From the NCBI GenBank assembly GCA_963702895.1, contig OY969767.1:704001-768000 (forward strand): 64,000 bases of DNA. The letters run 5' to 3'. A program made the translations under genes and the position numbers. Positions within the stretch are counted from its first letter, which is position 1; each line of letters begins with the position of its first letter. This DNA is from an uncultured Elusimicrobia bacterium (GTDB taxonomy: Bacteria; Elusimicrobiota; Elusimicrobia; 2-01-FULL-59-12). Below are positions 17,632 to 61,000 of the stretch, one piece after another. Under the pieces are notes generated by a model. It saw only the letters and a program-made list of their open reading frames with translations. It was not told where the DNA came from and did not search any database.

Positions 17632-17639
17632 AATGATCA

Positions 17640-23749: not shown

Positions 23750-23758
23750 CACCATTAT

Positions 23759-23790: not shown

Positions 23791-23810
23791 TAGTGCAGCA
23801 GCATCATCAT

Positions 23811-24956: not shown

Positions 24957-25075
24957 CCGTATCGGAGTAACGCCCGCCACTACAGCTCGGCGGGCCCGCC
25001 AACGATGTGATGGCGGGGAGTATCGGGGTAACGGAGTAACGGCAAATTGAGGATGAAACTATTTTAGAGAGTATT

Positions 25076-25759
25076 ATGAGAAACCTAATGCGAATGCTTA
25101 TTCGGCCTTTACTCCGGTACTCCGGTACCCCGATACCCCGGTACCCCGGAACCGCCGCTTCGCTTCGCTCCGCGGCGGGTCAAGCCTCAAGCGAAATCCT
25201 CTTCCTCCTTCCGCTTTTCGTCATGATGGCCGGCCTTGCGCTTTATGTGGGATACATGTGCTATCAGGGCGTGAAGGTCCAGCACGCCGCCAATTTCGCC
25301 GCGCGCATCCAGGGGCAGGAGCGCATAGGAGGCGGTGTGAGTCAAGACAGCATCAATCGATTAAATGGTCTGGAAGGCGCCTATGACGAAATCCCGGACG
25401 CGGCGACTCTGAGGAGCCTCTCAGGCAAAGATGTCCCGCCGGGGCGTCTGCGGAGGAAGGGACTCCATGGGGTGTATTGGAAGTATCGAACGCTTGCGGG
25501 AGAACTTTTCTATGAGGCCCCTGAAGACAAGCTTCTCTTCCCGAAACCGGACCTCGGCATCAATTCGGACAGGGTCCGGGTCGCGAGAATCTTGGTCCCT
25601 CCGAAGCTTTTCGGTCTGCAGATGGCGCCCATGGTTCTCGAGGCGGAGGCCTATGGGGGCGAAGACCCCCGGATGTACGGCCTGCCGCGCTGGGGTGAAA
25701 CAGGTGGTAAAACAGAATCGTTTTATAAAACCCAGATCAGGGAAAAGATAGGGCCATAA
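25076..25759 (+). CDS. tadE: TadE-like minor pilin with repeat insert in leader
   Basis: AG|QASSEILFLLPLF...QHAANFAAR. Confidence 0.75.
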   Translation: MRNLMRMLIRPLLRYSGTPIPRYPGTAASLRSAAGQASSEILFLLPLFVMMAGLALYVGYMCYQGVKVQHAANFAARIQGQERIGGGVSQDSINRLNGLEGAYDEIPDAATLRSLSGKDVPPGRLRRKGLHGVYWKYRTLAGELFYEAPEDKLLFPKPDLGINSDRVRVARILVPPKLFGLQMAPMVLEAEAYGGEDPRMYGLPRWGETGGKTESFYKTQIREKIGP

Positions 25760-26463: not shown

Positions 26464-26520
26464 CTATATCCTTAGATGCAATTTGCCAAGATTTATTCAT
26501 TTCTCCGTCCATCTCCCGCT

Positions 26521-26716
26521 GTTACGCCGTTGCCGTTACCCCGGCACTCCGATACCCCGTTACGCCGTTGCCGTTACCCCGGCACTCCGATACCCCGTTA
26601 CGCCGTTGCCGTTACCCCGATACTCCGGTACCCCGTTACGCCGTTGCCGTTACCCCGGCACTCCGATACCCCGTTACGCTGTTGCCGTTACCCCGATACC
26701 CCGTTACCCCGATACT
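26521..26716. repeat. 8-mer array with 38-bp higher-order period (5 copies)
   Basis: GTTACGCC GTTGCC GTTACCCC GGCACTCC GATACCCC units start at 26521, 26559, 26597, 26635 and 26673. Confidence 0.9.
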
Positions 26717-26859
26717 GCCACCCCGGGGCCCACGTTTCCCGTGGGACTTCTGGTCGGGGAAAAAAGGTCTTTGGATCGATTCAATGTGCGCCCGGCGGGC
26801 AGTATCCTTATGGTGTGGAAAAAAAGGTTCCTGGGAGGGGATCTTTTAGGTCGACTATT

Positions 26860-35800: not shown

Positions 35801-38682
35801 CCAAGGCGCCGGTCACCATTTACGATCCCCAAAAACTTCTGTCGGCGCGGCTGCAACTGGAGATTGAGAAAGCCAAGCAGGCCGGCGCGCTGGTCGAGTT
35901 AACAGACCAAGCGCCTCCTCCCTTGACCGTCCGCCAGACAGTGCAGGCGGCCGCCAATCGTGCCTTTGGCGCGGCGGGCCGGCCTTCCTTTGATATTGCC
36001 GGCGCGGTAAAGCTCCAGGAGCGTGTCACTCAGCTTGGGCGCCAGCATGCAGAGGCTATCCAGAAACAGAGGATGGCACAGCTGGTCGAAGCACACGGTC
36101 CCGAGATCCTCCAGCGCATGGGGCCGCAATTTGCCGATCTTCGTCCCGAAGACTTGAAGCTCACGCCGAAAGAACAACAAGGGCTTCAAGAGCTGCAAAG
36201 GGCCCAGGAAGAACTGGAGCAGAGGGTGCATGCCTTGCGGCCTTACGCACCGCTTTACCTGGACGCCTATCGCGTGCAGAAGCCGATGGCCGCGTTCGAG
36301 AACGATCCGCGGCATGAGCTGCTCAAGCAGCTGGCGGCCGCCCAAGACGACGCGGGCGCCCTGAAGGCGCTTCACGAGTATGCACAGCCGGCTGTGACCC
36401 CTGAGCAGGAGCGCGCCGCGCTGAGTAGAGCCACCAGCGATTCCTTTGTTAGCAAGCTTCCGGATGGCACGCTGAAATTCTTTGGCCTTGAAGCCCCGGC
36501 AGGTGTATTGCAGGCCTTCGATACAGCCCTGGCGATGGTCATCAAGGGGAACGCTGGATTGAAGCCCCTCTCGGGGCCCATGGGTCAATTGCGGGGAGGT
36601 CTCTCGAGTGATCCGGCTTTTGAAAAGCTGGATATGGCCGGACAGATCGCTACTTTGGAAGCGAGATTGGCCGACTATTTGACATCGATGAAGCAGCTCC
36701 CTGTATACACTTCTGCGCAGGAGGCTATCGCTAGGGCGTCTCAAATGGCATTTGAAGGCCCCACCATCAAGACCCGCGGTCTGATGGAAGAGCAGATTGC
36801 CGTGCAGACAAGAGACCTTCCTCGAGAGACCGTGCCCATTTTTGTCGTCGAGGATGAACAAGCCGAGCAGATTCTGAATCCCGCCGGGACGGTCATGACG
36901 GGGCATCACCCCAAAGTGATCACGCAAGAGCAATACCAGGCCTATCAAATGGAATTGAGCAATTTGATCAAAGCCGCCGCGGAGAAACGGGTTAGCGATC
37001 TGCCCAAGTGGTTTGCGGCGCGGGAGGCCTATGCCACACGGCAGCAGACGATGCAGGCGGGCTCATCGGTGGCGACGCTGGTCGTGACGACCCTGGTTAC
37101 GCTGGGCCTCATTTCGTCGGGCGTGGGCACGGTCATGGGCATTGTGGTGGGCTTGCCCATGATGTGGCAGATGATGAAGACCATGCCAGCCATGATGCAG
37201 GCCATGAAGCTCGCCAAGCAGAATGGAACGCGCCCGGCCGCAGCGGCGCCTTCGGCGCCGCGTCTCGCGCTGCCGCAGATGGCCGGTATCGGAATTGCGG
37301 CGGCGGTGGTGCTGGCGTCGATGATCTTCGGATCCATGTTCTATGGCATTCCTCTGGGCCTGGGCAGCATGGTAATGAGCTTATTGATTCCCATTTTCAC
37401 CGGCGGGTCCGTTCTTTCCTTCGGGATTGGCGCGCTGCGCCACGTGCGCCGCGCCGCATCAGCACCGCCCGGCTCTCTCTCCGCTTTGGCGCAGCTTGAG
37501 CACATGGAGCCGGCGGCGCTCAAGAGGTTGGCCCGTGGCGCCAAGCTGGATGAGGAGACGGCCGACGCGCTCGTTGACAAATTTGCGGACGTGGCGCCGG
37601 TGACAACCGACGGCCTGTCGCCGCTTACGCTTTTCCGCGAGGCTTTGCGTGATCAGATTTATAAACTGACCGATGATGAGTTTCTGGCATCGAAATTGGC
37701 GAAAGAAACTTGGGCAAAGTTTGAACAAGCACTCGATCAAGGACTTGATTTTGAAGGCCTGCAGAAGAAAATCCGAGAGTATAAAGCCTCGGGCGAAGCC
37801 GGTCAATTCAAGGATCGGTTTAACAAGCTCCTGATGAGAGCATGGCGTAGCGCACAATACTCTCAGGCGATCCTCTATCGCGCAGCCGCGCGCCGTGCGA
37901 TTGCCGGCATCCGCCCCGGAGCGCTTCTGGCCGCGCCTTCGGCACGCGAAGTCCCGCTCATTCGGCAAGCCGTGAAAGCCATCCAAGCTCAACAAGCTAA
38001 CGCCAGCGAGGCGGCAGCACCAAACGCTGCCGCGGCGCCCGTTCCTTGGCGGGTGATTGACGGCAGTGCCTATCAGCAGTTCCTTGCCGCGGTGAAGGCG
38101 CAGGCCCGCCCGGCGGCTGCCGCCGCGCAGCCGGCGAGTGCTTCAGTTTCCGTACCCGATTCTGCGGCGGAGGTGAGACCTGACCCCGTTTCACCCGCCG
38201 CAGCTCTTTCTCCGATCGTCCGCACGAGCGTCCTCGTCTACAGCGGCTTGGCGATGGTCGGCATTTTCGCGGCGGCCATGCTGCCAGGGGCCGCCGCCGT
38301 TGCCGCCATCGCCGGCGTCGGCTTCATGGCCTCGATGTGGAGGCGCATGACGGATCAGGCGCTTCCTTCACCAGCAGTGACCGCCCAAGCGCCGCCGCGC
38401 TCCTTCTTCGGCATGCCCGTGAGTCGTCTGGCAAGAGTCGGTGGGTTGGCGAGCGCGCTCATTCTGGTTTTCAGCGCCCTCTCGCAAGCCTCACCGTCCC
38501 AGGTGCCCGGCGCGGCCGCCGCCGCGACCGGCTTCTCATGGGCGTCCCTCGGCTCGCTGGCCGCGCCGGTGGCCCTGGTGGCCGTCGTCGCGATCGCGGC
38601 TGTTAGCCTCATCCGTCACTACCGCTCCTCCCGCAGCCCTGTTCCTGAAGACCACAAGAAAGCCTTCGGCGCCACCGCCTAA
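26860..38682 (+). CDS. Giant (~3,940 aa) membrane-associated protein with central SecA-like SF2 ATPase
   Basis: Signal peptide ...SLSMILTAPGTTAWA|EV; Gly/Ala-rich hydrophobic helices; coiled coils; GTGGGKT, DEAH, RWSD, LSGS, GTDIK, QTVGR; C-terminal TM hairpins. ATG 26860 preferred over 26476, whose extension is translated repeat. Confidence 0.85.
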   Translation: MITRYLSWLYRRIGVSAYRRIGVTAVTPTLRYSVAPSPLPRYPVTPIPRYDVSLFASRSSVFSRFLAVSLSLSMILTAPGTTAWAEVRSQNETEQLKVTSDNEPGKNYKSLIKNPKAGGEAIQLLQALANLGMELGSRFVKPQSISSMAAFPFGGRGVEKGDAQYANPIIVQHDVANLGHDVRTYLGDIPVIDLDESAATPDQLRYGVAKRMFESIVHPERDSLEGGTEKAGAPASNASVASANPNAGEELNIPHMLEILKSQLGEADKSGKARGGVVDAYQTMVDEYKNLYVSNGVAIKINQYLLTKTKAELNELAVVINQLEIQKATCGGVFTPACVAVGRQLSDAHAKKKELLKRQAEYETALREAQEYFAVAKQMLQQLRQASSNPKMFDFDHMLKGEKAEGYDTSKSLDGVIDERYNDWKMKQSNNVFGTLTNSVGSWIWAHKGAIIGAAVGLAAVAGVIVFAPAVITGVAVAAVTKAALFVGATAAPAALTTAAGWVAGTTALGIGGTVGAMAGSQYDAGVLSANQATIQADAARAESTAYRQKTGAWFDQLKASGASQDALSKFLAESARNGHAMDAAKTLLAAQNAAATAYKNLVGIAAQLQDILSGGNNARDQFLRIAKALGGSSVENTLASNLRNGMKLNDAANHLFSYHSNNVLKSVGQSFQEGMQSSFMKGLEQTRNEVKSAQENANKVRQSIFQAAQSGDHDALAFARQNGMQWFDSYTGELSQNAFDTSLKDPTSVGHSYGDYSTRVHNTYSGVSNPISPIVTAVKDAWGDSSVLQDGVVGTIGRVAWAGATSAVNSVFEVVMDPAMAAGGAIFSLSGSAMQRFGDTYTGQWLQTVGASQFGNTVFSRSLGGNASRAVQFMTGVSDQELLLDYSSGQGLFNTRNSQFNSFLNTTRQELLQEGQLMSNGADVLSTVNIKTASMRVGSHGISDLYAGNYLSGAAKLVGAGLSIGGQTMLDMGSSMGVFNTGIGYLGKGNAFVRSALQTTFVRLPMAQFGIGMAHDMRNMWEGVLAGMHGDTATSAKLFGSGLVDFAGTAAGMTGLGSMRAGARAAGELGKGAPVMQRAQAYASGFARDFAPRLVFETGKLGIQGGLVLAGGGLMGGEGALGGALGGVKAIEIAPHLPDYVRLQADEIRVANDVAARASINTPAQAEKAGYATRIYERALSRFSESQLSAIAKGEAGPTIDLGAKNPGLSLTQSKVGRFLLRVMGSEPVNPDNTLAASFKVDASNPYLKKAAENVLVKRVVPQSTGTIAEALRAGYREVRSMLSPEPAMQLVGVGGMVLGEFSAPREITRQSVASRSSQAPQEATQPSRFQRYKIFRAERVQSPIEALKRLHETTVQAGEALRANPSDANLARAYKKAAARELSAVGEVRDILILRGGAESGIRDIAETLRRTREANHELSRLADEAGAHVSIAVGSEALARAGNNATPLQVAEAKFRQASGVAQLARATNDGTVPARQATYKAYAELERARADLLEAQLRADEAQKPSSGGPDARLAELRAQEVRAQVAVSRAQAEALESMARSRGELNAASDRLKAVRQAAQEARDVRVGEEIEQAGRYRARLQEQEAILSDSSRANDHAQAVRAKKALEAEQYLAKLKAEGEHPAAGRYIEAEQQAAYLRRLADKGLDPVTVRDKILHPVASLRRSSALRQLTKAVHQEVVFKKALDGVVSKLSPKVQADGEWVRSLLSGTDPAARLAEVRYNFEDIRAEDSPDGLAYKKGTYRFEITKKGLEGNEGALLQQRITELNRGLQKIAEAVGIDGLFRTQINQILQAIGVPRTFIVEGTGGGKTKVITPALAYLLKSVYGDAIGRVTVALPDTNLLRGAYSEVGIVYEKLYGKGGVYKLEGDAIKGQGIASVIESVRKAKVIYTTRDTLKQLEMQYSASAMSSPKEVELYKLLIDKGVIIADEAHQLRKVDLIQGNDGTQPLRIANREMNDAMLRVDAVLESMRNDPQYKAYQDFLSRTGFRDNYDSFYRFMAEHVAEDGSFSSSFLQAYAKASQGRVNMKDLRNPRSFAMENEAAALRGFGEAVTIAHQSENGYGLHAKAKPGQVVPMSLGEPNPTMRWSDSAMTGARQIVGARRLSDAKQWNKEGRADLSAKSLLENAETNGSSVRVTDLSYLKRFMGVIELSGSPQGVIQREAVDLGLMAPRNYQDSSPMARLLERGMNWIRGQDVKNVQDVKEMAALAAREIEGRQVAVIGIESNQLHGFEYSKALVDRLSKEPGRIVLVQSGPKVEIFRDGVKLGERPSGELGDILTSREAQERYLGGPLGKQKIAIVLDQGGVTGTDIKIPFKPAKVLQSLERFADGARRDSLRADELEQIRLDPAARRLFSEDGRLIGSLDQVRNRIVELKTSEMVSRLLRGDPLTEVEARSLKAGLETLARSGDKAAGDLSRIVKGIQDAEFAKVEVLKDKGLFDQANPAAREMYRGVFSEYLDSGPKFISVGGKETASKRLVQTVGRDRGIDVAAYGYHSKTVIKITGEPIEEPSRRLTDLLKTTEINEARNNQEDLYQGFVSALTENMLSRFDHMLTNIDPGMGGRRVKAERDAVISARKAFEKRAGLNSNLVVGKRTKAFQALQQDVVRLQETFERVTKEYRSALGKANRAFVDTMNQNQVRLAFNEGSQGWKASDGIDSKQRLFNPSPVAEGQAGAGRPAAEIQGLVGLGFSEAVSRIGRALKASDLDFEIGQPQKTAVTSAENLISYAQDRLAASRSSVVSVRDLLEIQRASVRAANSLGPNGHLPPVVGMIASVGASPDDIKEILTREPKIKGANPDTPDALPDFVPKLQTAGPSQRVAASMNGVADDLRQGWMSSKGYKKPLAALANAVRSYGSGQVTDSGRFNIALNAYKAAPALVGHAFLPELALNNAQAARESLSAMQSALSEAKDPLVTRSLERSIQIAQNAPRAAVESDPGYTVVREGQGAQAAVAVHVTGATAELTRGILSLLKYAAASKAPVTIYDPQKLLSARLQLEIEKAKQAGALVELTDQAPPPLTVRQTVQAAANRAFGAAGRPSFDIAGAVKLQERVTQLGRQHAEAIQKQRMAQLVEAHGPEILQRMGPQFADLRPEDLKLTPKEQQGLQELQRAQEELEQRVHALRPYAPLYLDAYRVQKPMAAFENDPRHELLKQLAAAQDDAGALKALHEYAQPAVTPEQERAALSRATSDSFVSKLPDGTLKFFGLEAPAGVLQAFDTALAMVIKGNAGLKPLSGPMGQLRGGLSSDPAFEKLDMAGQIATLEARLADYLTSMKQLPVYTSAQEAIARASQMAFEGPTIKTRGLMEEQIAVQTRDLPRETVPIFVVEDEQAEQILNPAGTVMTGHHPKVITQEQYQAYQMELSNLIKAAAEKRVSDLPKWFAAREAYATRQQTMQAGSSVATLVVTTLVTLGLISSGVGTVMGIVVGLPMMWQMMKTMPAMMQAMKLAKQNGTRPAAAAPSAPRLALPQMAGIGIAAAVVLASMIFGSMFYGIPLGLGSMVMSLLIPIFTGGSVLSFGIGALRHVRRAASAPPGSLSALAQLEHMEPAALKRLARGAKLDEETADALVDKFADVAPVTTDGLSPLTLFREALRDQIYKLTDDEFLASKLAKETWAKFEQALDQGLDFEGLQKKIREYKASGEAGQFKDRFNKLLMRAWRSAQYSQAILYRAAARRAIAGIRPGALLAAPSAREVPLIRQAVKAIQAQQANASEAAAPNAAAAPVPWRVIDGSAYQQFLAAVKAQARPAAAAAQPASASVSVPDSAAEVRPDPVSPAAALSPIVRTSVLVYSGLAMVGIFAAAMLPGAAAVAAIAGVGFMASMWRRMTDQALPSPAVTAQAPPRSFFGMPVSRLARVGGLASALILVFSALSQASPSQVPGAAAAATGFSWASLGSLAAPVALVAVVAIAAVSLIRHYRSSRSPVPEDHKKAFGATA

Positions 38683-46021: not shown

Positions 46022-49000
46022 TTGATCTCGCTGCTTTTGGCCCTGTGCATGATCGTCGATCCCGTGTGGGCGACGGGCGTTTCGGACTTCGTCCGCGCGA
46101 GCTTCACGCACGACATCCGCGACATCATGATCCCGGCGAAGCTGGGGATGGTGACCGATAAGTGGATTGCGTCTGTATCGGAGTATCGGAGTAACGGAGT
46201 GCCGGGGTCACGTCAGAGCCGTAACTCCGCTACTCCGAAACACCGTGACTCCGATACTGTTGTTACCCCGATACCCCGATACCCCGATACTCCGGTACAG
46301 CCGTTTGTCGTCCTCATCCAAGACCTCCACGCCAACATCAGCGTCCAGCAAAATATCTCGGGCATCCTCCAGTTCCTCTACCGCCGCACGCGACTCAGCC
46401 ACATCTTCGCCGAAGCGGCCTTCGGCCCCTGCGATGTCTCCATCCTCCGAACCCTCCCCAGTCGGCGCGCGCAGAAGCGCTTTGAGAAAAAGCTACTCGA
46501 CCAGGCGCTCATCGCCGGCGACGAGCTCGCCGCCGCGCACGTGGGCGAGGGTCCCCTCTCACCCGTCAAGCTCATCGGCGTCGATGACCCGCTCCTGTAT
46601 CTGGCGAACGTCCAGGCGTTCCGTGATCTGGTTTCCAACGGCCCGCGGATCGCCGAAGAATGGAAGGCGATCCGGGACATTCTCATGCCCGGCGCGGCGC
46701 CGAGCTTGCGCCGGCACCTCGAGCTCACCGAGAAGATGCTGTCGCTCAAACTCGTCGATTACGAATGGGAACAGTACAAAGAACATAAAGATTGGACTCC
46801 TGGAAGGGCGTCCCGAGTCCCGAGTCCCGAGTCCCGCGTCCCGAGTTCCGCGTCCCGAGTCAAGGGACGGACGCAGAACCTGAACGGCCAGACGCGAAGC
46901 GCAGGACGCAAGACGCAAGACGCAGCACGCAAGACGCAGGACGCGCGACGCGTAACGCAGGACGCGAGACGCGTAACGCAGGACGCGAGACGCGAGACGC
47001 GGGACGCTTTATCTGAAGCGATCGCAGCGGCCGAGCGCTTCTACACCGCCGCCGAAGCCCGTAATGGGGCGATGGTGGACAATTTGCTGGATCAAATGGG
47101 TGTATCGGAGTATCGGAGTACCGGAGTACCGGAGTCACAGCGTGAAGGCGTAACGGAGTACCGGGGTACCGCAGTACCGGGGTCACATCAGAGCCGTAAC
47201 TCCGTTACTCCGATACCCCGTTACCCCGATACAGAAATTGCGCCGGTCGCGCTGGTGACCGGCGGCTTCCACACCGCCTCGATCGCTCACCGGCTCAAGG
47301 AGCAGGGCATCAGCTTCATGGTGGTCACACCCCAGGTCGACCGCCTCGACCACGAAGAGCTCTACGTCCGCAGCATGACCGAGCCGCCGCACGAAACCGT
47401 GCGGGCGGTCGCCACGTCCGGTTATCGACAGCTTACGAACCTCAAAAAGTTCGCTGTGAGCTTCGGCATGGGAGAGAAATTCGGAGAGTGGTTCAACCGG
47501 ATGATCAAGCCACAGTACATCTGGAAACAAATCAAAGCCTGGGCCCAAGATAGTTTTGATGTTCTTGTGCGTGAGGTGGCCGCCAGACTCCTCCGACAGA
47601 TCATGGACCAGCCTCAACGATTGCCTCGCTTCGCGTTGTCTCGGCGTTGGGCCCCGGCGCTGGCCGGCATCGGCACCGTTTTGGTCGCCACGCTCGCCTC
47701 CGTGGCGGATGCCGGCACGCTCCAGGCCGCCTCTTTCGCGCCGAGCCTGACGGCGGCATCCGCCGCTCAGCCGGCCTCTGATTTTCCCTCGTTGGGTGCG
47801 GCCTTCTGGCAGAGCGCCTCTGTCTTTCTATTGGTGTCCATCTTATCCATCCTTCTTGTAGCGTGGACCTGGCGATTCTTCCGCAAATGGCAGAAAGCCG
47901 AAAGTCCGCATATGGACATAGTGCATCGGCTTAGGAACATGATTCCACGGAGGTCAGTAACACCAGGCAGTCGTCCTGGTGTTAATCCGTCAGCGCCTCG
48001 TCGTGCGAAAAGTCTCCAGGCCGGTCAACCGCGGAAACCCTCCCCTCCCGCTGTTCTGCGTCTGCAGCTTGCTACTGATGTGCCAGCGGATCCCGTTGAT
48101 CTGCGTCTGAAGCTTGCTACTGATGTGCCAGCGGATCGAGGTGCAAAAGTACCCTCGGCCGGTCAACCGCGGACACCCTCCTATTCCCGTGTTCTGCGTC
48201 TGCCGTCCGTCCTTGTCATGGCCGCGGGAACGCTCTCCGCGCTGGCCGCCAGCGCCGGCAAAGTTGCAGCTCAGGGCCTCGAGGTCGCCGGCGCCGCGGC
48301 GGGCCAGGCCGCCAAGCTCGTTCAGGTCGTATCGCCGGAGGCCGTGTCGGAATACATCATTCATCCCGGCGACACGCTGAGCGAGATCGCGCCGCAGCTC
48401 GGGACCACGGTCCAAGACCTGGTTGAGCGCAACCATATTGTGGACCCCGACCTCATTTTCGCCAACGCCAAGCTCCTCTATCCAACACCGCATTTTGCGA
48501 CGGATCTTGCCGTGACGGCGTCCCAGCCGGCCGCTCAGGTCGCGGGTCCCGCCGCCCAGGCGGCCGACGCCGCGGCGCAGGCCGTCAACACGATCCCCTC
48601 CGCCGCGCAGGCGTCCAGCTGGTTCGATTCCGTCCAGCAGGTTTTCTCTCAAGGCTCGGCCGTGCTCCAGGCGCATCCCTATCTGATCTTCGGGTTCGTT
48701 GGCACGGCGATCATCGGACTGGTCTTCTACGGGATTTCCCGCTATCGCGCCCAGCGGTCAACCAGCGCCATCATTGAAAAAGCCTGGGTTCAGGCTCTCA
48801 AGAGAACGTACACTTCCGAAGCGCAAGCCAGAGAAGCGATCCAGGCTGTCCAGGCGCTCCTCCCGAAGCCGGGTCCTTATGGAGATTATGCGGAGTATGC
48901 CTCGGATGAACTCCTCACGAGCGTCATGCAGAGGATGGAGACCTCCAAGATTAGCCGAGGTGCGGATGGCCAGAACTGGATCCTTCGCGACGGCACCTCC

Positions 49001-52000
49001 AATTTGCGGCGCGAGCAGCAGGCCGCCCGGCAAGTCCGGGCCTACTACCTGGGATTGCCGCGCTACTATCTGAGACGCCTCTTCAACGCTGGGCGGCGGA
49101 AGTTTTTAAGTCCCTGGACGGAACTGGTCTCCATTGTGCCGTCCCCTTCGCCGGTCCCTCAAACGGCGCCTTCGGCAAAAGTCCAAGTGTCCGGGCGACA
49201 GGAGCCGTCGGCTGTCCACGCTTCGGTTGCCGGCGGCGAGCAAAGCGCGCCGAAAGCCGCCGCCGTGCGCTCCCAGCAGGCGGCCAAGGCCGCGGCGCGG
49301 CGGCGGCCTTCCGGTTCGGAAAAGCAGCCTAGGCGCCTCCAGGATATTCCGCGCCTGGCCGCACTCCAATTGACGGATGAAGAACAAATGGTTCTGGCCG
49401 AAGCGCCCGATCTCATGGTGGACAAGAGGACGGAAATCGATGCCGCCTACCGGCGCTTGAATGAACTGCTCGATACGCATATCCAGGCCTATGTCCTATC
49501 TTCATCAAAAAATACCTACCGGCACCTTCAGTTTGCACCTTCTAAAAAACAGCGTGCCCTCCAGCGTCCCCTCCAGCATGCCCAGCGCTTGAAGGAAATC
49601 CTTCGCCACCGCCCCCAACTTTTGCAGGAGGCAAAGCTTCTAGCACAGGCTTTAGGCAAGAACGCTCTCAACCAGAGGCGCAAGGCCGTGGATTTGGTGT
49701 TGGTGGGAAGCGCTGATTTGACGGAGGCTGCCGGGCGGCTCGAGCAAGTCGCGGCCCGCGTCGAAGGAGAACTCACTGGGGAGCTTGCAGCCGTTCAGGT
49801 CGCGGCGCAAGAGACCCAGAAAGATCTGGAAGCGATACGGCGAAGAGACGGCCGCATCCATCCATCGGTCTTAAAGTCCCTGGAACAAATAGTGCGAAGA
49901 CTTCCTACGCTCTTTGATGCCAGTTCTCTTCGCGGCGAACTGGAACATGTAGACCGCCTGAACGGCACCCTCATCGGGCGCGTCCAAAAAGCACAAGGAT
50001 TCCAGTTCCTTGCCGCCTTGCAAAGCCGGGTGAACCAGATCTTAAGGCACCTCCGCGGGATTGCCAAACTCCTCGAAGCTCTCGGTGCGCAGAAGGACCT
50101 GGCCGGCTCATGGGCTGAGTCCAGCAACAACCGGTGGCAGGCCGTCTTGGCCAGCCTTGCCCCGGCCCGCCGCATGCTCGCCCCGGTGGTCGTCGTGCTT
50201 GGGCTTGTGTTCGCCGGACCGGTCTGGGTCCCCTACGCATGGAGCGTCGTCGCCACGGCGCCCTATCTGAGCGGCACGGTCCTTGTGGCGGGCGCTCTTC
50301 TCGTTGGGGCCATCGCTGGCGTGAAGCGCTACCGTGCTTCCACGATGGTCGTGCTGGATCTGACGCCCAAGCTGTCCGGCGCGGGTGTTTCGGTTCTCCC
50401 GTTTCTCGCGCAGGCGCCTGCGCCTCGTCGCTTGGCGCGCACCGGCCTGGTGAGTCTTTTGCAGGCGGTGTCTTTTGCGTTGCCAGTGGCAGCCGGGAAT
50501 ATGGGGCCTTTCCAGACCCCCGCCCAGGAACTTCAAGACCAGGAGCTCTCGGGCTGGCAGCGCCGGGCGGACTACTTGCGCCGGCAGAGAGGCTATCTTG
50601 ACCCAAGGTCCTCCCGCGCGCAAGACCTTGCCCGTGAGTTGTCATGGGTCGAGGCACACCTTGAGGAAGTCGCGCTCCGCACGGCCCAGATGGAAAGGTA
50701 TTTGCAGGACCCTGCGCGTCTCAGTGCCGTTCATCAGCGGGAAGCCCGGCTAGAAAAACTTGCTTCCGAGCTTGCCGCGCTTGAAAAGCAGAAAGCCCCC
50801 GCCTCTCGCGTGGAAGCGCTTCGCCTGCAAATCCGCTATGAAGAGCTTGAACTCCGCAGGCTCAAGATTCCGGAAGAGCTTCATGACATCAGCCAGCAAA
50901 AGATCGCCATTCTCAAAGAAAACAAGGACGTCGATGCGCGGCTCAAAGCGCTCTATGCCCGCGAGATGACGATCCAAGCGGAAGAAGAGGCGCTCTCGCA
51001 GGCGCTTGTTGCCTCAGCCAACGCCTACGGGACATCGCAGGCGCTGCTGGAGGACCTCCAAGCAGGCCGCGGTGACGTGCTGGGTAAAGCGCTTGGCGTG
51101 CTCATCGGAAACTTTGAGCGCATCGAGAAGCTCCCCCGGCCGGAGCAGGAACGGATCCTGGCCGAGCTGGCCCAAGCGCGCGGCTGGACAGGGGAGCGGT
51201 CGGAAATCCTCCGGCAGCAGGCCATCGAGCTGCTCGAGCGCGCGCTCGTTCCTTTTCAGGCGCGCTTCCAGATTCGCCTGGACTTCTATGACCGCGCCAT
51301 GGCCCAGGCCGGGCTTCGGGAGCGTGCCTTGAACGGCCGCGTTAGTCACGCTGCGGCGGCTGAAGAGCTTGAATTCGAACGTGAAAGCGATCGTGCGGCC
51401 GCTGTCATACTCGAGAATCCCTATGCCGATGTTCTACTTGAGAAAGACTACGCCGGTGTCGCGGATGCAACCTTAACGCAGGAAGAAGTGGAGCTGCGGA
51501 ATCATTTGATCTCGATCATCGCACACGCGGAGGCCCGCTTCGACCAAGAGGTTGTGACCGGAGTCAAGCCGTCCCAAGACAGCGCCGAACTCGCGGACGT
51601 CAACTGGAAACTGGCCACAGCCCAAGGTCCTGAGCGCGAGAACCTTCTGAAGAAACAGAAGGAGCTTCAAGCGAGCATCCAGAAGCGTGAGGAGGCCGCC
51701 AAGCTCTCTCAGCGGAACAGCGAAATCAAGGCGCTGGCCGGGCGGCTCAAGCTCAAAGCCGGCAAACCCCAGGCCGAGTTTCAGCACCTGGCGAGCTGGC
51801 TGAAAGATTTGCATATCGCGGTGCCCCCTCCCGCGCCCTCCGCGGGCCTGCAGCAAAGGCTGGCGGCACTCAACCCCTCCCAAAGGGTGCAAGCCTTTTC
51901 CGAAGAGATGGAGCGCATGACCGAGCGCTCCTACGATGAAGGCCTGCAGCAGGCGATGAAGGTTTTTGGGGAAGTGTACGGTGTTGTCGTCGGCGACGAG

Positions 52001-55000
52001 TTCGATCAGAACATCGCCGATGCGCTGATCAAGGCCCTGCAATCGCCGAAAGACCAGGCTGATGTTTTGAAGGTGGAATCCCGCCTTGAAAACTCCGAAC
52101 AGAAAGAGGAACCCTCGTCCGCGCCCAAGTCCACTCCCGGCTTCTTCCCAAATCCCTTCGCTTGGCTCTGGTCCAAGATCGGAACCGAGGTGGATGCTTT
52201 CCAGGAACAATCATCGAAACCAAAAGAAAGCGCTGCCGATGCTCAAATCGCTTCCCAACTGGCAGAATTGGAGCGCCAGCTCGGCGAGGAGAAAGACAAG
52301 CACAAGAAAGACCAGCTCACCAAGGAAATTTTCGAGTTGCGCTTCATTCAGTCTCAGCGGGCGCTGGCGGGGAATGTCCGCGCGCTGCCCGATCAGCTCT
52401 CCGCGATACCGACTGAGCAGATCGGGCAAGTCCAAACATGGCTGGTCCTGGCCGGAATGCCCGAGCCGGATGCCGTCGCGCGAGGCTGGAAATACGCGCC
52501 GCAGATGAACGCGTTTCTGCGCGACTTCCAAAAGCAACGGGGCATCACCGGCGAAACCGACGCGAGCGGCCAGCCGCTCCTTCTCGAGAAGACAAAAGAC
52601 GCCCTGATCAAAGCCGTTTGGGCCGGACAGCGCCGCGCCCAGCGTACACAGGCGGACGCGCTGGCCCGTGCAGAAGAGCGCCAGAGACAAGCGCAGCTCC
52701 AAGACGAACACGCCCGGGCTGCTGTCCAAGCAGAGGCCGCCCGGCGCAAGGCCCAAGAAGAAACCACCACTTCTCCTGAGCGCGCGGAGGCCGCTGCTGG
52801 AGCCGTCGAGAATGTTGCCCGCATGAGCACGGATCTTGGCACGGGCGCCGAGGAAAGCCGGCGCGTGGTCGCAGCCCAGCAAAAGATCCCGCCGGGGATG
52901 CTTCCGGCCGTGGAGAAGCTGGTGAACCGCCTGAGCTCCCGGGCCGCCAACCCCCTGCAAGAACGGGCGGTCATTTATGAAGAGATCGTGCAAGTCCTGG
53001 CGCAGGCGTTTAGCCCGGAAGCCCTGAAGTTTGCCCTCCAGGAGCTGATCGCGCGTCATGCCAACGGGTTTTTTGCGGACGTGGCGGGGACACTGGCGGA
53101 ACACTTGGTCGGGCTCCTGGCGCTGGGCTCGTCCGTTTCTCTCGAGATTACGCAGCGCATGCTGAGCCAGACGCCGGACGTCATGGCCATCCCCGACAGG
53201 GGTTTCCGCACGCGCGAGACCCAATTCGCCGACACGAAGCTCCGGCAGTTCCAGGCGAGCGACCGCGGGTTCGACGCGAGCCAGTTGACGATGATCTTGC
53301 CACGCTTCCAGGTCCAGCTGGGCGGTGTGACGAACGCGGGGGACCGTTCTTTCTACGGCAGCCTGGGTGTCATGCTCCCTGTCGACCTGCGCGCGATCGC
53401 CCAGCGCAAGGAGATGGCGCAAGCCTATGCTGAGCTCCTCACCCGCGCGATCGCGGCCAAGAACCAAATGAATTTGGAGTTTATGAAAGGCTGCCTGCAG
53501 CTTCTGGCCTTTGAGGCGGCCATCAAGCAAGCCCAGGCCGCTCAATATGCTCAAGGGATCACCGAGGCCGAGCGTTATGCGCTCGAAGTCCAGGTGGACC
53601 TCCTTTTGGCCAGGCATGCGGAGCTCGCCAGACAACTGAGCGCCGTTTTCAAGGTGCCGCTCGAAGGCAAGGCCATGGGGAGGTTGCTGGGCGAGAAGCG
53701 TCAATCCTATTTTGATCTGCGGGAAAACACCCAGGTACTCGAGCCCGGGACTATCCAGAGTACGCTGGAGGAAGCGACGGAGGATGTGACGGCCTGGCTC
53801 AACCGGGAGTCCATCATCACGCAGGTCACGACCATCCTCCAAGGGCGCCCCGGCGTGAACGTCGAGACGCTGGGCAACAAGCTGCGGGCCGCCCTAAACA
53901 ACGCCGGCCAATCGGCGCTTATGAGCGGCGCGGGGCTCGATGAGGTCGTGCACACGGTCTTACGGGAGGCCCATTTAAATCCGCAGCCGATCGAAGACAA
54001 TAACTGGGAGATCGGTTTCACCCTCGCTCCTGCCCGCGCCGTTCCCAAGGGTTCCGATGGCAATCGCTTGGGCAGAATTCTCCTCGCGATCGGGACGAGG
54101 TCCCGGGGCTCGCTGATGCCGGCGCTCGAATGGAACGGCGGCGTGCGAGGACGCCTGGGCGCCTTCATCCACATCGATCTTATCGATCCTGCGCGCAAGG
54201 GCGAGCTGCCGGCCAAGCTTCGCGCGCTGGAGGCGGCCAAAGCGCGCGAGCGGCAGCTCGATGTCGAGCAGATGCGCCGGGAAGCCGCGTACACCTCTGA
54301 TCTTCTGGCCGGGCCCGCCGCCAGCGGCCAGGCGGCGCCGGAGCTCGTGGGTCGCTACCTCACAGCACGGCTGCAACAGCGGATTTTGGGGCCTGCTTCA
54401 GAGGCGGAACAGTGGCTTGAGACGGCCGTACCGATTCTTGAAGGGACCGCTGCAGATTCCGAATCCAGCCTGCGCGGCATCCTCGCGGCCGCGCGCAGCC
54501 GGGAAAGCGAAGCCGGCGTGTCCGCCGCCCAACTCCAGCTGGGCCTGGTCGAGAAAAAGTCTGGACGCTTCTCCTTGTCGATCGATATCGGGGCCCCCGC
54601 CGGCCCGACGCTCATCGAGCTCGCCTGGGACCGCAGCCGCTTCAAAAATCAGAACCAGATCATCGAGCAATTGCTGAAGATCCAAAACGCCCTCAACCTC
54701 GACCTCGTCGAGTTCCAGACACTGGCCGTCGTGGAAGTGCTCATCGCCGCCCACCAGTCCCCACCGGACTCCCTTGAAGCGAAGGTCGCCTTCAAGCAAG
54801 CGCAGTTCATGCTCCGGCGCCTCCTCGGCCAGGCCGCGCTCAGCCTCACGCTCTCCTCCGACACGCTCGAGGGCCTCACGCGGCTGCGCGAGGAGCTCTA
54901 CGCCCGGCAGAGGGAGCGCCAGGCCAAAGCCACGGAGCTAGAGGCGTTTGTTGCCCAGAAAGTCTATGAAGTGGCTTTACAGAACAAACCGTCCCTTCGA

Positions 55001-58000
55001 ATCACCGTGCCCGCTTCCCCGACCCCGAAGACGGTTGTCGTGGCCATTGCCAAGAATCTGATCAGTGTGCCGGTCTTTCTGGTCAGCTTCTTACGGCATG
55101 GCGTGACGCCGCAAGAGCGCGCCGAGAAACGTGCCATCGATGAGCAACAACGCGCCCTCGAAGAGCAACAACGCGCCCAGGGACAGAAGCCCCAAAGCGC
55201 CCCGAAGAAGCCCATGAGCGAGCGCGAGAAGCGTCTGGATGAACTGGAAAGAAAAGCCCGCGAGGCCGAGGAGCAGGCTCTCGCGGCCCAGATTGCCCTC
55301 GAGCTTGAGCAAGGGGGACCGGGCGTCCAGGTGATCAAAAATAACGCCGGCCAGGTCATGCTCTTCACGGAAGTTCAAGGGGCTAACCCCGCGGGGCCAA
55401 GCCGCCGCTATTTCCTTGTCCGGCCCACGCCCCAGACCATCAAGGACCTCGTGAACTGGCAGCCTGGCCGCAGGGACCAGGAGATCTCGACCCTGACGGG
55501 ATCGTTCCTTGCCCCGATCCTGGTCGCGGCCGACCTCATCAAAGTCGGCGATCTCCATGAATTGGCGGTCACGGAGTACAACAGCGCGAACGGCAAAATC
55601 CTACGCACCTACCACGTCGGCGGAGAAGGCGTCCAGGCGCTGGTGCAGGCGCGGGACACGAACCTCAACCAGGATCTGGTCGGCCAGATCGCGTGGCAGT
55701 TCCTGATATCGGACTTCGTTCTTGGGCTCGGCTTCTCGGGCACGGCGGGCCAGCCCGGCCGCTTGAATCAGGATTGGATGCTTCGCAACATGGGCCGCAA
55801 TTTGAAGGACCTGAGCAGCCCCATGTATGACGTGAGCGCTGTTTTCGGCCATTCTGCTTTCACGGTCCGCGGCGCCTACGCCTACGATTCGCAGAGTTCC
55901 GCGGGCGTGGCCGCCTTGTCGGCGCCACTTGGCGAAAACGCTTCGGCGGGTGTGGGCGGGAAGGTGAACACGACCGGTAAGAGCACCACCATCATCCCTT
56001 TTGGGCAAGTCTCTTACAGCCACCGGAGCGATGCGGAGGGGCTGCTGACCCGCGTCTCCGCCTATTTCTCCCAGGACCAGGACTATATCGACCTGATGCA
56101 GAACCTGAACCGCTCGAGCGCCGTCCAGCTCCGCGTCTTTTATGGAGCGGGCGGACAGCTGGAATTCATGCCTGTCATCAACATCCAGAACGGAAGATGG
56201 GTCTTGGCTGCCAACATAGACCGCCACAACATCGAGCCGTCCTTCACCGCAAGATGGGTGATCAAACATGATCTGGCGGTGCGCATCAACGGCATGTTGC
56301 ACGACGAGCGCAATTACGCGACGTATGTCAATCTGATCAAGACCCTCCCGCGAGGGGGCGAGTACTATGGAGGGGTCCGCGCGACCTCCGAGCAGTCTGT
56401 TCAGATGGACCTTGGCGCGTCGACGAGGCTCAGGAGCCTGACCGTGGAAGGCATGATGCTCTTTGAACTGGAGGACCTCGCAAGAATCTCCTGGGGATTG
56501 CAAGTGGCGCAGCACATCGGACACCAAGGCGGGTCGTCCTGGAGCGCGAGCGTCGGCGGCGACGGGCAAGACAGCTCGCGCTGGGCGTTCATGTTCCAGC
56601 AGACGCTCACGCCTCTGCGTAAACTCTATGGTTTGCCGGGCGCCCCGGCGCCGGGCGTGCCGCCGGGCGAAAAGGACGGGGTCTCGGCGCCATCTGCCGC
56701 CGGCGGTTTCTCGGAGGCCCTGGCCCAAACCTTGGGCGAGAATGCCGCCGCGGAAAAACTCTTTGACCAGATCACCCGCTCCCTCTCGACGGATGCCAAG
56801 GACCTCAAGCAAGCGGCCGAGGCCCTTCGCCGGGAACTGGTCCGCCTGCCGCCCGAGGAACAGGCGCGCCTCGGGCCGCTGGTCCAGGGCCTACTGGACG
56901 TGATCGAAGGGCTGCCGCAAGGGATATCGGTCCTACAGAAAGCAAGCCAGTCCGTCGTGGGGAAAATGGAAGCGCAGCTGGTGCAAATTGACAGGGAGCT
57001 GGAAGCGCTCGCCCCTCGTCATGCCGGCAGCGCCCCAATCCAGTCCACGCGGAAGTCCCTGCGCGAAAAGCTTGACAAGGTGTCGAAAATCCACGCGGAG
57101 GTCCATAAAACTTTTCAGGACTACCTCAAGGCGCTGCAGGACGTGCAAAAGGGCCGGCAGACGCTCCAGGCCCTGGGCATTCAGACGGACCTCTCGGAGC
57201 TGCAGCAGGCCCGCGGAGAGTACCTCAGGAGCATTGAAGCGGTCCACCGGATCTCCCAGGTGCCCCGCAGTGCGCGCTCCTCGCAAGACCGGAACGAATG
57301 GAGGCGCTTTGTCGAGCTGCGGCGCTCGCTGGATCCCATAGTCCAGGATTTCCTTCGCTCGGCGCAAGCCGAGGTTTCGTCCGATGCCCAGCGCGCCTGG
57401 CTGGATTACTTTGTGATTTGGGATTGGATGAATCCGGAAAAGCCGCAAGCCGCCGAAGTGATGAACGTGATGAAGGGCCTCCTGCCGCATCTGGACCGCC
57501 TGGGTCAGTTGGACATGAACAAGAGTGGAGCGCGCGAGCTTCTGGACCAGATCGCGAGCGCCATCCTCATCGGGAAGGTCGACCCCCAGAGCGTCTATGC
57601 GCTCCTCGACCGTGCGGCCGAGATGCTGCCGTCCTTTGCCCGGATGCAAGGCAGCAGTGCCTTTGACCTCAACCGATCGGGCGACCTGCTGGAACTTTTG
57701 CGGTGGGTCCATGGCAACGAGATGGCCGTTGACGCTGTCCAGAAGGACATCCGCCAGGAGAAGCTGCCTGAGTCCCTGGGGACGGTCCGCCAGGGCGCAC
57801 AGGTCCGAGCCGAGATCTTGAAGGATGTCGCCACGCTCTTGCGCCAGATCATCCAAGAGGCCGATCCGGATGGCGAGCAGTTCCGTAGGAGTGATCCACA
57901 ACACCAAGCGCTTTTTGACAACGCCCTCAATGTCCTGGCAGATGCCATCCTGAAGGACGCCTACCTCCGGGGAGCAAGCGTTCCCAAGGCCATGCTCTCC

Positions 58001-61000
58001 GCTCAGATTCACTATTTTGACCTGCTGCTCCAGCTCATCGGGAAAGACAACCTCCAAGGTTTCAACATCGTCGATTATCTCCGGCATCTCACGAATGAAA
58101 AGACCGATACGTCTTATATCCGTTTGGCCTATTGGGCAATCTACGCGACACACAAAGACATTGTCGGCCTAGGAGGCGCGGGGGTGCGCGAGCACTTCCA
58201 ACGGATGCTGAATCTGCGCGAGAGCGTCCGGGAGGCCGGTCTCTTTGGCCGCAATCAGGAGGGCCAGAACCGCGCCTTTGACCCGGAGCGCCAGGAAGAC
58301 GGAGAGCTGTTGAGTTATCTCGCGTCCTTCCTCAGTTTCCATGTGCGCTGGTTCGACAAGCCAGTGAATCTTTCGGGCCTCGTTTCCCTGATGAAAGGGA
58401 TAACACTGAGTTTTCAAGCGCCCTTCGTCTTTTTGCCTGCGCGCTTGGCCAACAACACGATGGAGCCTTCGGACCTTGCTTTGCTGATCGAACAGGCGGG
58501 GCGCCTGTGGGGGAAAGACCGCGCGCCGGAACCCGATGAGCTCAAAACACTCGTAACCAACGCTGCCACCCTCATCGGCATTGAGAAGCTGGGATCCAGC
58601 AAGGACCGCCGCAGCCTCCAGGCGCTGGAGGAGTACAGCCGGCTGGGCGAGCTCATCGATGCCGTCAAGGCCGTTTGGGAAGTGCAGCCCGCCGGCCTCG
58701 GGACCGACCGCGGCGTCGGGGCGGCCCTGGGCTATGAGATTGACCGGGTGGTCGACAAGCGCGAGACCGTTTCACACCGCCTCCAGATTCTCCAGACGCA
58801 GGCAGCCATCAAGAGCCAGCTTGAGGCAATCCTCAAACGGACGCTCCTGCCGCAAACACAGGACCTCGACCTGCTCGACCGCTGGGCCGGGGTTATTCTC
58901 GCGCGCTCCCAGGACACCGACCCCTTGTCGTATTTGAGCCAGTACCAGCGGGAGCTTGCGCCGCTCTTTGGCCGGCAGGAATCCGAAGGGCTGGATCTCC
59001 AGGATCCTGAGGCTTTTAGGATCGTCAACGATCTGGCGATCAACCACGCGATGCGCGCGGGCACCGTCAAGGACGTGGTCCCTCATCGCCAGGGCGACGA
59101 AGTCGAAGTGGAGGTTTCGTTGCCCGGCGTTGTCAAGGCCATGCGCGAGCTGCTTGACGTGTGGCTTCTCGCAGAAGGAAATGGCGAGCGCCACCTGCGC
59201 CTGAAGGACCAAGAGGCGTTTGCTTCGCTGCAGAAATGGGCCATTCGCCACTTGATGGCTGCACGGCTGGGCTATGCCGAAGACTATGTACCCAAGATCC
59301 TCGCGGCGGCCCATGAAGTGCGTCCTATGGTCGAGGCAGAAGAAAGCGGCCGCCTGGCTCCGAACCGGACGCGCGGTGCGCGCGCCAGTTTTGACAAGTC
59401 GCCGCTCCTCGCGGTTCTTGCCGAGTGGCGGATCCAGAACCCGCAGGCAAGCCCCGAGGATATCCGCCGGGTCATTCAGGAGTTCTCCGACAAAAACCGG
59501 ACCGAGACAGGCATCCGGGGACATTCCCAGCAAAAGGAAAGACAGCGAAATCCTTTTCTAGAGTGGATCCGGGCTCTCCGAGAAGGTCCGCCGGTTCAGA
59601 AAGCGCTACCGGGCAATGACGCGAATCGCGCCCCCACGCCCCGGCCGGATGCTGGAAAGCCGGCCACAAGCGCTCCAGCGGTGCCCGTCCGCGCCAGCGC
59701 TCAAGCCGCGCCCCGCGAGGAAGCGCAGCCGCGCGAGTCCCTGACGGCGATTCTTCCCCCCAGTCGCACGATGGTGAAGCGCTCAAGCGTGCGTGCTGAA
59801 GGGCGCAAAAAAGCTGTCGACGAAGAAATTGCCTTTCCTCCTGGCTTTGACAAGGTCAACGTCTCCTTTGTTATCCCGGTTCTTCCGCTTTTCCTCCTCT
59901 CGCGTCTCTTAGGGCGCAAGCACAGGGGCTATTCGCGCATTGCCTTCTCGTTGGGCGTCGTCGGCATTGTTCTCTTGGTCCCTTCCACGGCCGAAGCCCA
60001 GATGCCCCCGGGCGCCCTCACGCCGGACGGCCAGGATCTTCTTGATGCCATACGTGAATTCAGGGAGCCCTGGCGCCTGGGCTATTTCAATGATGATTGG
60101 GGCACCAAGATTGCTGCCATCGGTATTCCCACTCCTGCCGATATCAGTAAACTGAACGATGTAGCGTTCATCTATGGGGGGGCCGCGGACGAGTATTTCG
60201 CCTTGGTCTACGACCGGGTTCACGAACTCGTGGAAGGCTATGTCATGCCGAAGGGTTATGAAACGCCTTTCTTTGTTCTTTCGGGAATCCCCGTCGACGC
60301 GCGTGGCGTCACCGCCGACAATATCCTCGGGCTCAGGCGTTATGTCGACGCGCGCGATTACAATTTTGAGGACAATCAGAAAGCTCTCGAGCTCATTGAC
60401 ACCTTGCTGCGCGACGACTTCCTGAATAGGGCCTTCAAATACCTGAAGGGAATCTCCGTTGAGGACGGAGTAGCCTTGGGGCGCGGCCAGGTGCAGAGCA
60501 TTTTCACGATCTTTCATCCGGATATATCCCCATTGCCTTTACCGGATGGTACGGTTTGGCCAGTTCCTTTCTCCGAATATTCGCTTGCTTCCTTCACCGG
60601 GGCCATGCGCGAGCTCTATGAGATGCATCTTGATTTCAGTCGCGCAGGGCTCGGGGCCGCTTTCCGGGTCCTCTTTCATGACATCAACATCGATGCCTCC
60701 AAAGTCCAAACCCCCGGCAGTGAAGCCTTCCTGATGTCCTTGGTGGGGACCATGCCCTATAAGCCCGAACAGATTCGCCAGGCCCTGATCATGATTAAGA
60801 CGGCCAACCCTGCTTATGTAAGTGCGTTCCGCTATGTCCATGGGTTAAACATCGCCTATGGGAACACGCTCACCGAGGAAGAACGTGATAAGTTCTTTGA
60901 GATCATGAACCCCGGGGGTGTCATGCTGGAAGGGGAGAAACTCACGGAGCACCTGGAGGCGGTGGAGAAGATTTATGAGCTGCATGAGGCGTTCAAAGGC

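Follow-up and report, generated by a model that had tools for sequence, protein, structure and literature searches.

In the glycoprotein polyproteins of viruses such as flaviviruses and bunyaviruses, stop-transfer segments alternate with internal signal sequences and in this way set the subunits of one translated chain, which is cut by the host signal peptidase. In bacteria, Bradyrhizobium FbcH, a cytochrome b-c1 precursor reportedly described by Thöny-Meyer and colleagues in 1991, is said to be encoded by a single open reading frame (ORF) and to be cut into two membrane proteins in a fixed ratio. An internal signal peptide behind its polytopic part is said to start the second protein, giving two products from one site, for a respiratory complex. 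In the vertebrate astrotactins ASTN1 and ASTN2, according to Lara et al. (bioRxiv 10.1101/493858), the second membrane helix is cut by the signal peptidase of the endoplasmic reticulum (ER). Here, we analyzed a stretch of 64,000 nucleotides (nt) from an uncultured Elusimicrobia bacterium (assembly GCA_963702895.1, contig OY969767.1, positions 704,001 to 768,000 of the forward strand), hereafter called the window (G000:C1:704001-768000; the genome, G000, is a single 2.72-Mb contig). It contains two very large ORFs, giant 1 and giant 2, and the question was whether five signal-like segments deep inside the encoded chains serve as export signals and as sites of cleavage.

Very large genes of Elusimicrobiota, encoding proteins of 10,000 amino acids (aa) or more, were reported by West-Roberts et al. 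(2023). That paper describes many transmembrane (TM) regions, unreliable topology calls, and secretion or pilus genes nearby. It leaves open whether giants are cleaved and names C39 or S8 peptidase domains as a means of autoprocessing. A 2026 preprint on Omnitrophota assigns 94% of the long proteins to a TM or signal-bearing class and downgrades, as artefacts, internal signals that were called on later chunks. The word "polyprotein" does not occur in either text, and a literature search for a bacterial polyprotein with internal signals and signal peptidase processing returned nothing relevant.

Giant 2 is truncated by the end of the window, and its frame runs on for 20.7 kb to position 788685 of the contig, so that the total length is 12,887 codons. 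The protein is a mosaic with LysM, SLT, methyltransferase, and GlgA-like domains. The SLT lytic transglycosylase domain (near aa 6884-6992) lies past the window, and the C-terminal region contains the SAM methyltransferase and the GlgA-like starch-synthase domain. The features of both giants that bear on the question are listed below in window coordinates; an arrow marks the candidate cut.

26476..38682, plus strand: giant 1, 4,068 codons as given in the frame list; orthologue in the related genome G005
27052..27114, plus strand: probable N-terminal signal peptide of giant 1 (…FLAVSLSLSMILTAPGTTAWA↓E; in G005 …LTMPGMTAWA↓V)
38425..38490, plus strand: signal-like segment of giant 1 (aa 3984-4005, …VFSALSQA↓S)
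38533..38613, plus strand: inward-going TM partner at the C-terminus of giant 1 (about aa 4020-4046), followed by RHYRSSR
46022..64000, plus strand: giant 2, first 5,992 of 12,887 codons, from the frame list; collinear orthologue in G005
46022..46072, plus strand: N-terminal signal peptide of giant 2 (…LISLLLALCMIVDPVWA↓T), conserved in relatives
46160..47431, plus strand: exported N-domain with a possible EreA/ChaN-like fold (QDxH…E…GGFHT), giant 2 aa ~47-470
47639..47713, plus strand: signal-like segment 1 (aa 540-564, …SRRWAPALAGIGTVLVATLASVADA↓G, end ADA↓G)
47807..47872, plus strand: TM paired with segment 1 (aa 596-617), inward-going, with RFFRKWQK behind it
48188..48271, plus strand: signal-like segment 2 (aa 723-750; end ASA↓G after aa 745, or KVAA↓Q after aa 750)
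48353..48478, plus strand: LysM domain (aa 778-819, E 2.3e-8), between segment 2 and its partner TM
48677..48739, plus strand: TM paired with segment 2 (aa 886-906), inward-going, with RYRAQR behind it
50174..50323, plus strand: two-helix membrane hairpin (aa 1385-1434) just upstream of segment 3, conserved in G005, G004, and G010
50426..50494, plus strand: signal-like segment 3 (aa 1469-1491, …LPVAA↓G)
59855..59902, plus strand: short inward-going hydrophobic arm (aa 4612-4627), followed by the 12-residue basic loop RLLGRKHRGYSR
59915..59998, plus strand: signal-like segment 4 (aa 4632-4659, …VPSTAEA↓Q)

An earlier note on this DNA had pointed to these five segments, to their basic-hydrophobic-small-residue build, and, for the four in giant 2, to a nearby TM. 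All five were located within 3 nt of the positions that it had given, their build could be read directly from the sequence, and a hydrophobic partner was found for every one of them. The n-regions contain 2-5 Lys or Arg residues within 12 residues upstream; behind the apolar cores, which are 13-16 residues long, come ends of 3-6 residues in which -3 and -1 are small. Pro does not occur at +1, and the small uncharged residues at -3 and -1 are kept in relatives. Because they are placed 540 to 4,632 residues into the chain, and not at an N-terminus, the segments can only be internal signal sequences. Segment 4 opens a stretch of 3,700 aa of giant 2 that is free of TMs and holds the SLT domain. 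Further segments of this type are found past the window at aa 8387-8410 (LLA↓Q), with a TM at 8434-8452, and at aa 9173-9193 (VEA↓Q), with a TM at 9195-9224. The genome encodes three S26 signal peptidases (Peptidase_S26 matches above the cut-off).

The sequence evidence well supports the conclusion that the segments of the two giants are conserved internal Sec-type export signals, i.e. start-transfer sequences. Whether some of them are in addition cut by signal peptidase I appears to us evenly balanced. The joint reading, in which both giants are polyproteins, the 12,887-residue precursor is cut by signal peptidase I at five or more conserved internal signals, and the route is shared by many giants, we regard as rather unlikely.

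The evidence for conservation comes from the G005 genome, in which orthologues of both giants lie collinear and side by side with frames interrupted solely by runs of N, and from homologous frames that were additionally read from G002, G003, G004, G006, G008, G009, G010, and L023. The ends that the earlier note had picked out as AxA sites proved to be held, as small-x-Ala ends, at equivalent positions in orthologues of 22-38% identity, whereas the hydrophobic cores have diverged. This is clearest at site 4, where the ends are …LLVPSTAEA↓Q in giant 2, …LGLPAVAEA↓Q in G005, and …LAAPTAAEA↓A in L023, with Pro at -6 and Ala at -3 and -1 common to all three and with differing cores. At the same site, G010 has …ILGFLAVAAGTEGVAKA↓A (GVAKA↓A) behind a core of about 10 residues. 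The site 3 ends are VAA↓G in giant 2, VSSA↓G in G005, TASA↓Q in G004, and FAQA↓Q in G010, and the site 2 ends are KVAA↓Q in giant 2, KAAA↓Q in G005, and RAAA↓Q in P0159. The giant 1 segment ends with SQA↓S here and with …ATAVLSA↓K in G005, and the G004 counterpart of segment 1 ends with PALA↓N. In the orthologues, too, the signals are built like cleavable signal peptides: the core is short, Pro or Gly frequently occupies -6 to -4, and the residues at -3 and -1 are small.

For the signal that comes first after the N-domain, nine homologues could be compared. The strict motif was present in 5 of the 6 that passed an objective rule; P0154 and P0159 failed for charge or hydrophobicity, and the G005 piece lacked the anchor motif owing to a run of N. 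By eye, the -1 residue was Ala in all nine (ADA↓G, ALA↓N, VLA↓Q, AAA↓S, VGA↓S, AAA↓Q, GLA↓H, AVA↓K, and AAA↓Q). As the geometry is kept across orthologues, one of the three signal peptidases I probably cuts at least segment 3, segment 4, and this first signal. The true N-terminal signals are conserved as well: their ends are TAWA↓E/V for giant 1 and DPVWA↓T for giant 2, and the form DPxWA↓A/T is kept in G005, G004, G006, G003, G009, and P0154-P0157.

The association of the motif with the direction of crossing was then quantified. Hydrophobic cores were classed as outward- or inward-going by flank charge, and [AVS]-x-A was sought 2-12 residues behind the core. The first batch, homologous ORFs from other genomes, had the motif behind 18 of 27 outward cores and behind 2 of 22 inward cores (Fisher p=4e-5), and 15 of 24 outward cores remained positive when three true N-terminal signals were removed. 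It was present on the periplasmic N-flank of 3 of the 22 inward cores and behind 5 of 33 ambiguous cores. Within the G000 genome, the motif stood behind 21 of 55 outward and 14 of 56 inward cores of the giants (about 30 proteins), compared with 63 of 313 outward and 62 of 323 inward cores of ordinary polytopic proteins and with 100 of 243 (41%) N-terminal single-core proteins. The 21 of 55 outward cores of the giants exceeded the baseline (binomial p=0.009) as well as the polytopic proteins (Fisher p=0.004), and their share is similar to that of the N-terminal candidates. A hydrophobicity scale gave +3.1 to +5.3 for the flagged segments, -0.8 to +2.2 for most partners, and +5.0 for the arm at 4612; on the same footing, the median for outward helices was about 2.1 kcal/mol in polytopic proteins and 4.9 kcal/mol in the giants.

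Several results weigh against cleavage, or against a simple picture of it. The baseline frequency of [AVS]-x-A is high, namely 22.5% of all 11-residue windows of giant 2 and 23% over all giants, and Ala is the commonest residue. The outward cores of the giants differ from their own inward cores with p=0.098 only. A cleavage-site matrix trained on the N-terminal candidates of this genome did not separate the classes, and core and end together give 18-20 uncharged residues per segment, long enough for an uncleaved helix. Signal peptidase I sites do not usually have Lys or Arg at -4, as segment 2 does. A second batch of homologues (G003, G006, the second contig of G008, and G009), which contained long polytopic stretches and two marginal signals below the threshold, gave the motif behind 6 of 13 outward, 4 of 12 inward, and 4 of 19 remaining cores, a weak result. 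Equivalent positions in relatives are not independent, so that the p-values for the homologues overstate the case. The predicted topology also contains conflicts: judged by flank charge, two outward crossings follow one another with no TM between them in two places, namely at the N-terminal signal and segment 1 and at segment 4 and aa 8387. G005 has a single inward TM where giant 2 has 8387 and 8434, and the inward arm before site 4 comprises merely 10-11 apolar residues in G005, L023, and G010. Hairpin 1 (segment 1 and its partner) is present in giant 2 and G004 and is missing as a unit from G005, and a paralogous glycoside-hydrolase-like (GH) module of G006 is exported by a 22-residue anchor without AxA.

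The length of the uncharged stretch did not differ between outward and inward cores (medians 21 and 22), the self-trained cleavage-site matrix drifted towards Cys and hydrophobic columns, and Gln at +1 was rejected as a signature of the lineage, being present in 6 of 112 N-terminal candidates only. Taken together, the counts, the tests, the failed matrix, and the hydrophobicity scores point to an enrichment within the genome that is real but modest; conservation in the homologues of other genomes is the stronger argument against chance.

The domain content of giant 2 sets limits on its topology. LysM and SLT domains act on peptidoglycan and thus outside the cytoplasmic membrane, whereas methyltransferase and GlgA-like domains use cytoplasmic cofactors; the chain must therefore cross the membrane repeatedly. 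LysM and SLT both lie behind outward-going signals. We infer from the sequence that the flagged segments are the outward crossings and that they act in export. Owing to the two conflicts mentioned above, not all segments can be simple signals with N inside and C outside in one chain. Very short hydrophobic stretches with Arg/Lys clusters may serve as return segments, or some of the signal-like segments may not be inserted at all. In the G009 orthologue, the N-domain is followed by a full inward TM, KRFSLSRR, a loop, and a signal; giant 2 has retained PRFALSRR only.

In the proposed mechanism, the host is a diderm Elusimicrobiota bacterium, across whose inner membrane both giants would be threaded back and forth. 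The module behind each segment would be directed by it to the periplasm, i.e. the LysM domain, a stretch of 3,100 aa, and the stretch of 3,700 aa with the lytic transglycosylase, and an inward-going hydrophobic segment with an Arg/Lys cluster would return the chain to the cytoplasm. Upon cleavage, the cut-off signal would remain as a C-terminal membrane anchor of the upstream piece, and a single gene would give several membrane-tethered or periplasmic products. In giant 2, cuts are predicted after A564, A745 or A750, A1491, and A4659; the one in giant 1 would follow A4005.

The strongest competitor of cleavage, to which we give somewhat less than an even chance, holds that the segments are uncleaved hairpin arms or signal-anchors that staple a single chain of 12,887 residues to the inner membrane with loops such as LysM outside, and that Ala-rich linkers and common descent account for the small-x-Ala ends, with no selection for cutting. 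With 18-20 uncharged residues, a segment is long enough to cross a bilayer, 22-23% of windows contain the motif by chance, and the second batch showed no clear asymmetry. Hairpin 1 was gained or lost whole between giant 2 and G004 on the one side and G005 on the other, which preserves the topology of the remaining chain, as expected of a staple. The plain 22-residue anchor does an equal job in G006, and therefore cleavage is not needed for the design. The 2026 preprint likewise treats such proteins as multi-TM chains. However, this explanation accounts neither for Pro at -6 and Ala at -3 and -1 at site 4 in three orthologues with diverged cores nor for the Ala that all homologues of site 3, and all those of the first signal after the N-domain, have at -1. 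It also leaves the asymmetry of 18 of 27 versus 2 of 22 unexplained. In addition, a stable helix would need more than the 10 or so residues of the G010 core, and the polytopic proteins of the same genome lack the enrichment (63 of 313 versus 62 of 323). It appears improbable that the segments are fossil signals, left by the fusion of separate genes for exported proteins, with no present cutting and perhaps no role in export. Such an origin would suit the complete twin-arginine-like signal (GRRRFLKL…) at aa 10756 in a genome in which no TatC was found, the existence of the N-domain in stand-alone signal-plus-domain proteins of 340-390 aa, the P0155 gene call that stops exactly where the signal core starts in G004, and the division of the giant into two genes in G006. 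However, neutral relics would lose the n/h/c geometry over 22-38% identity, the G006 split is not at a signal, and LysM and SLT require a preceding export signal.

Processing by another protease, for example by the giant's own exported EreA/ChaN/Tiki-like N-domain, we consider highly improbable. The EreA/ChaN superfamily includes the Tiki and TraB/PrgY proteases. The N-domain has invariant residues of the His/Glu/His type, and its model matches EreC, BcR135, and ChaN. For Omnitrophota giants, West-Roberts et al. (2023) suggest that C39 and S8 peptidase domains carry out autoprocessing. However, Z-scores of 8-9 are borderline, a common fold is no proof of activity, the signal-type ends were the only cleavage motif found, and no C39 or S8 domain was detected. 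Returning to cleavage by signal peptidase I, the polyprotein that the earlier note had proposed is partly supported, namely by the conserved sites, the three S26 genes, and the astrotactin-like arrangement at site 4; the failed matrix, the weak second batch, and the G006 anchor speak against it. That one ORF yields several envelope subunits in a fixed ratio is a reasonable hypothesis on this evidence.

If signal peptidase cleavage is true, one gene would deliver several envelope parts in a fixed proportion and at one place, and the size of a giant would describe its precursor only. A periplasmic piece of 3,700 residues with a lytic transglycosylase would be released, the upstream pieces would be tail-anchored by their spent signals, and it would be answered whether giants act as one chain. 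Many giant envelope proteins, in Elusimicrobiota, Omnitrophota, and further lineages with small cells, would then mature by the same route. Giants without C39 or S8 that keep signal-peptidase-type sites at module borders point to a housekeeping enzyme. If it is false, the sites mark how a chain of 12,887 residues is stitched through the membrane.

Relatives of giant 2 were found only in its own order of Elusimicrobiota. Its aa 500-1550 had a match in 2 of 41 relatives, G000 included, the matching genome being of the same family, and aa 1200-2000 had a match in 2 of 401 sampled genomes of the phylum, again G000 included. A profile of aa 5510-5992 matched in 6 of the 12 genomes of the order, in 2 metagenome contigs, and in 1 contig of the GTDB contig collection. 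In a search of 1.84 billion representatives with aa 500-1550, LysM matches dominated; the top 150 lay almost all at query positions 212-409, and none of them had E<=1e-30. Word-index searches gave no match for aa 1200-2000 among proteins of 3,295-10,486 aa and none for aa 4560-5992 among proteins of 2,509-5,000 aa, both of which are weak negatives. In G006 (L058/L059, G006:C11:9001-34000), the giant-2-like gene is split into a frame of 6,918 codons and a gene of 982 aa with HEAT-like repeats, TM helices, an M50-like end, and, behind its 22-residue anchor, the GH module. No signal-like segment coincides with the split. P0155 (417 aa, on a contig of 124.6 kb) ends with …MGRAFARV exactly where G004 (L038) goes on with …GFRAMARV-MVLSVV… into the signal core, and this end may be a seam at which the signal starts a separate gene.

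The N-domain (giant 2; also L045:1543-2505, minus strand) was characterized further. Its invariant residues are D70, H72, E100, and H275, and its model reached a predicted local distance difference test (pLDDT) score of 85. Compared with the erythromycin esterase EreC, BcR135, and ChaN, it gave Foldseek E-values of 1e-4 to 2e-3 with low TM-scores and VIA Z-scores of 8.0-8.8. Pfam at E<=1 gave no match for the G004 N-domain, a PDB sequence search gave none for the N-domain, and Atlas returned unnamed clusters only. The family has 4-17 matches per genome in 11 of the 12 genomes of the order (G000 included); it heads many giants and occurs also in the stand-alone exported proteins mentioned above. 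Two further large frames downstream of giant 2 (1,536 and 1,730 aa) start with this family. In giant 2 itself, the domain is interrupted in frame by three copies of a dispersed repeat (46170-46310, 46810-46950, and 47095-47235). The repeat has 133 matches genome-wide on both strands, and reads TPIPRYPDT or SEYRSTGVP depending on the strand. The same repeat fills about the first 190 codons of giant 1 (window 26476-27040), so that the true start of giant 1 is probably near its signal peptide at 27052-27114. For giant 2, the basic n-region of the signal (…SLAKR; window 45881-46021) precedes the first ATG, GTG, or TTG of the frame, and translation may therefore begin at a non-canonical codon. A lipoprotein N-terminus of giant 2 was rejected because the Cys is not conserved.

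Past the window, at aa 10756-10780 (L009:18287-18360), giant 2 contains a twin-arginine-like signal, GRRRFLKLTGAAAAAV, in front of a glycoside-hydrolase-like module and a TM anchor. An S/T-R-R-x-F-L-K motif before a hydrophobic core is shared by giant 2 (GRRRFLKLTGAAAAAV) and G005 (TRREFLRGILKGG, TRREFLRG). TatC was not found in this genome with the Pfam model or with tblastn using TatC of the same genus; 9 of the 12 genomes of the order have it, among them all three that belong to the same genus. When a stand-alone precursor of the GH module was sought, the G006 homologue proved to be again internal, behind a long anchor.

The genome has 31 stop-to-stop frames of at least 1,500 aa, and a crude gene call gave 30 genes of at least 1,500 aa that occupy 11.6% of the DNA. 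Domain searches of the giants revealed no C39, S8, or recognisable SecA_DEAD domain. A helicase domain of the ResIII type is the only recognised domain of giant 1, and a PDB sequence search gave no match for this region. Pfam at E<=1 gave no match for giant 2 aa 3180-3620 or 1493-2326 and noise only for aa 4661-5509. A beta-rich stretch of giant 2 with many Gly, Ser, and Tyr residues (aa 3225-3560, window 55694-56701) gave weak leads to clusters of outer-membrane barrels or porins with the Atlas language model (0.89-0.90, low recognition); the single-sequence AlphaFold model reached a pLDDT of only 31, and local blastp aligned no orthologue to aa 3180-3620. Two further features lie in and upstream of giant 1.

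13741..25759, no strand assigned: gene cluster for a Tad/type II-like pilus and a secretin, directly in front of giant 1 (context)
32257..32679, plus strand: P-loop helicase-like domain of giant 1 (ResIII, slightly above the Pfam cut-off)

The pilus cluster comprises two TadB/C-like T2SSF genes, a T2SSE ATPase, a ParA-like gene, a secretin, and TadE/TadG-like pseudopilins, and it additionally encodes PorV-like and FlgD-Ig/T9SS-tail proteins. Between the two giants (window 39289-45413), two AAA_14/DUF4143 ATPases, a HATPase_c_2 protein, and a DUF6036/AbiEii-like nucleotidyltransferase are encoded, which are genes of a defence- or mobile-element-like type. Giant 2 is followed by a frame of 3,018 aa (L010:4779-13832; G000 788779-797835), in which a DnaJ domain was recognised and an M50 peptidase matched weakly.

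Compared with the known systems, giant 2 resembles the Omnitrophota giants in its many TMs, its mosaic of cell-wall and sugar enzymes (starch synthase, methyltransferase), and the type II/pilus genes nearby. It differs from their SecA_DEAD giants of more than 30,000 aa in its length of 12,887 aa and its Elusimicrobia host, and the two giants of the window have a ResIII-type match only, in giant 1. Ordinary signal-anchor and hairpin helices are likewise hydrophobic, paired, and positive inside, but in this genome they carry the small-x-Ala end at the baseline rate only (63 of 313) and, on the scale used above, are more hydrophobic than the outward segments of the giants. Viral polyproteins mature in the eukaryotic ER, contain a few thousand residues at most, and have no homology to the giants, so that the likeness is one of mechanism only. 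Astrotactin is a eukaryotic ER protein with a single, experimentally proven cut and no sequence relationship to the giants, whereas giant 2 is bacterial and has several candidate sites in one chain of 12,887 aa. The order of the astrotactin elements is an N-terminal signal, an exported domain, an inward-going TM1, a short cytoplasmic loop, an outward-going TM2 with the signal peptidase site, and a large exported C-terminal part. In form, site 4 of giant 2 follows this order, with an exported stretch, the arm at aa 4612-4627, the loop RLLGRKHRGYSR, the core, PSTAEA↓Q, and a predicted exported part of 3,700 aa, and the G009 orthologue has the same order directly behind its N-domain.

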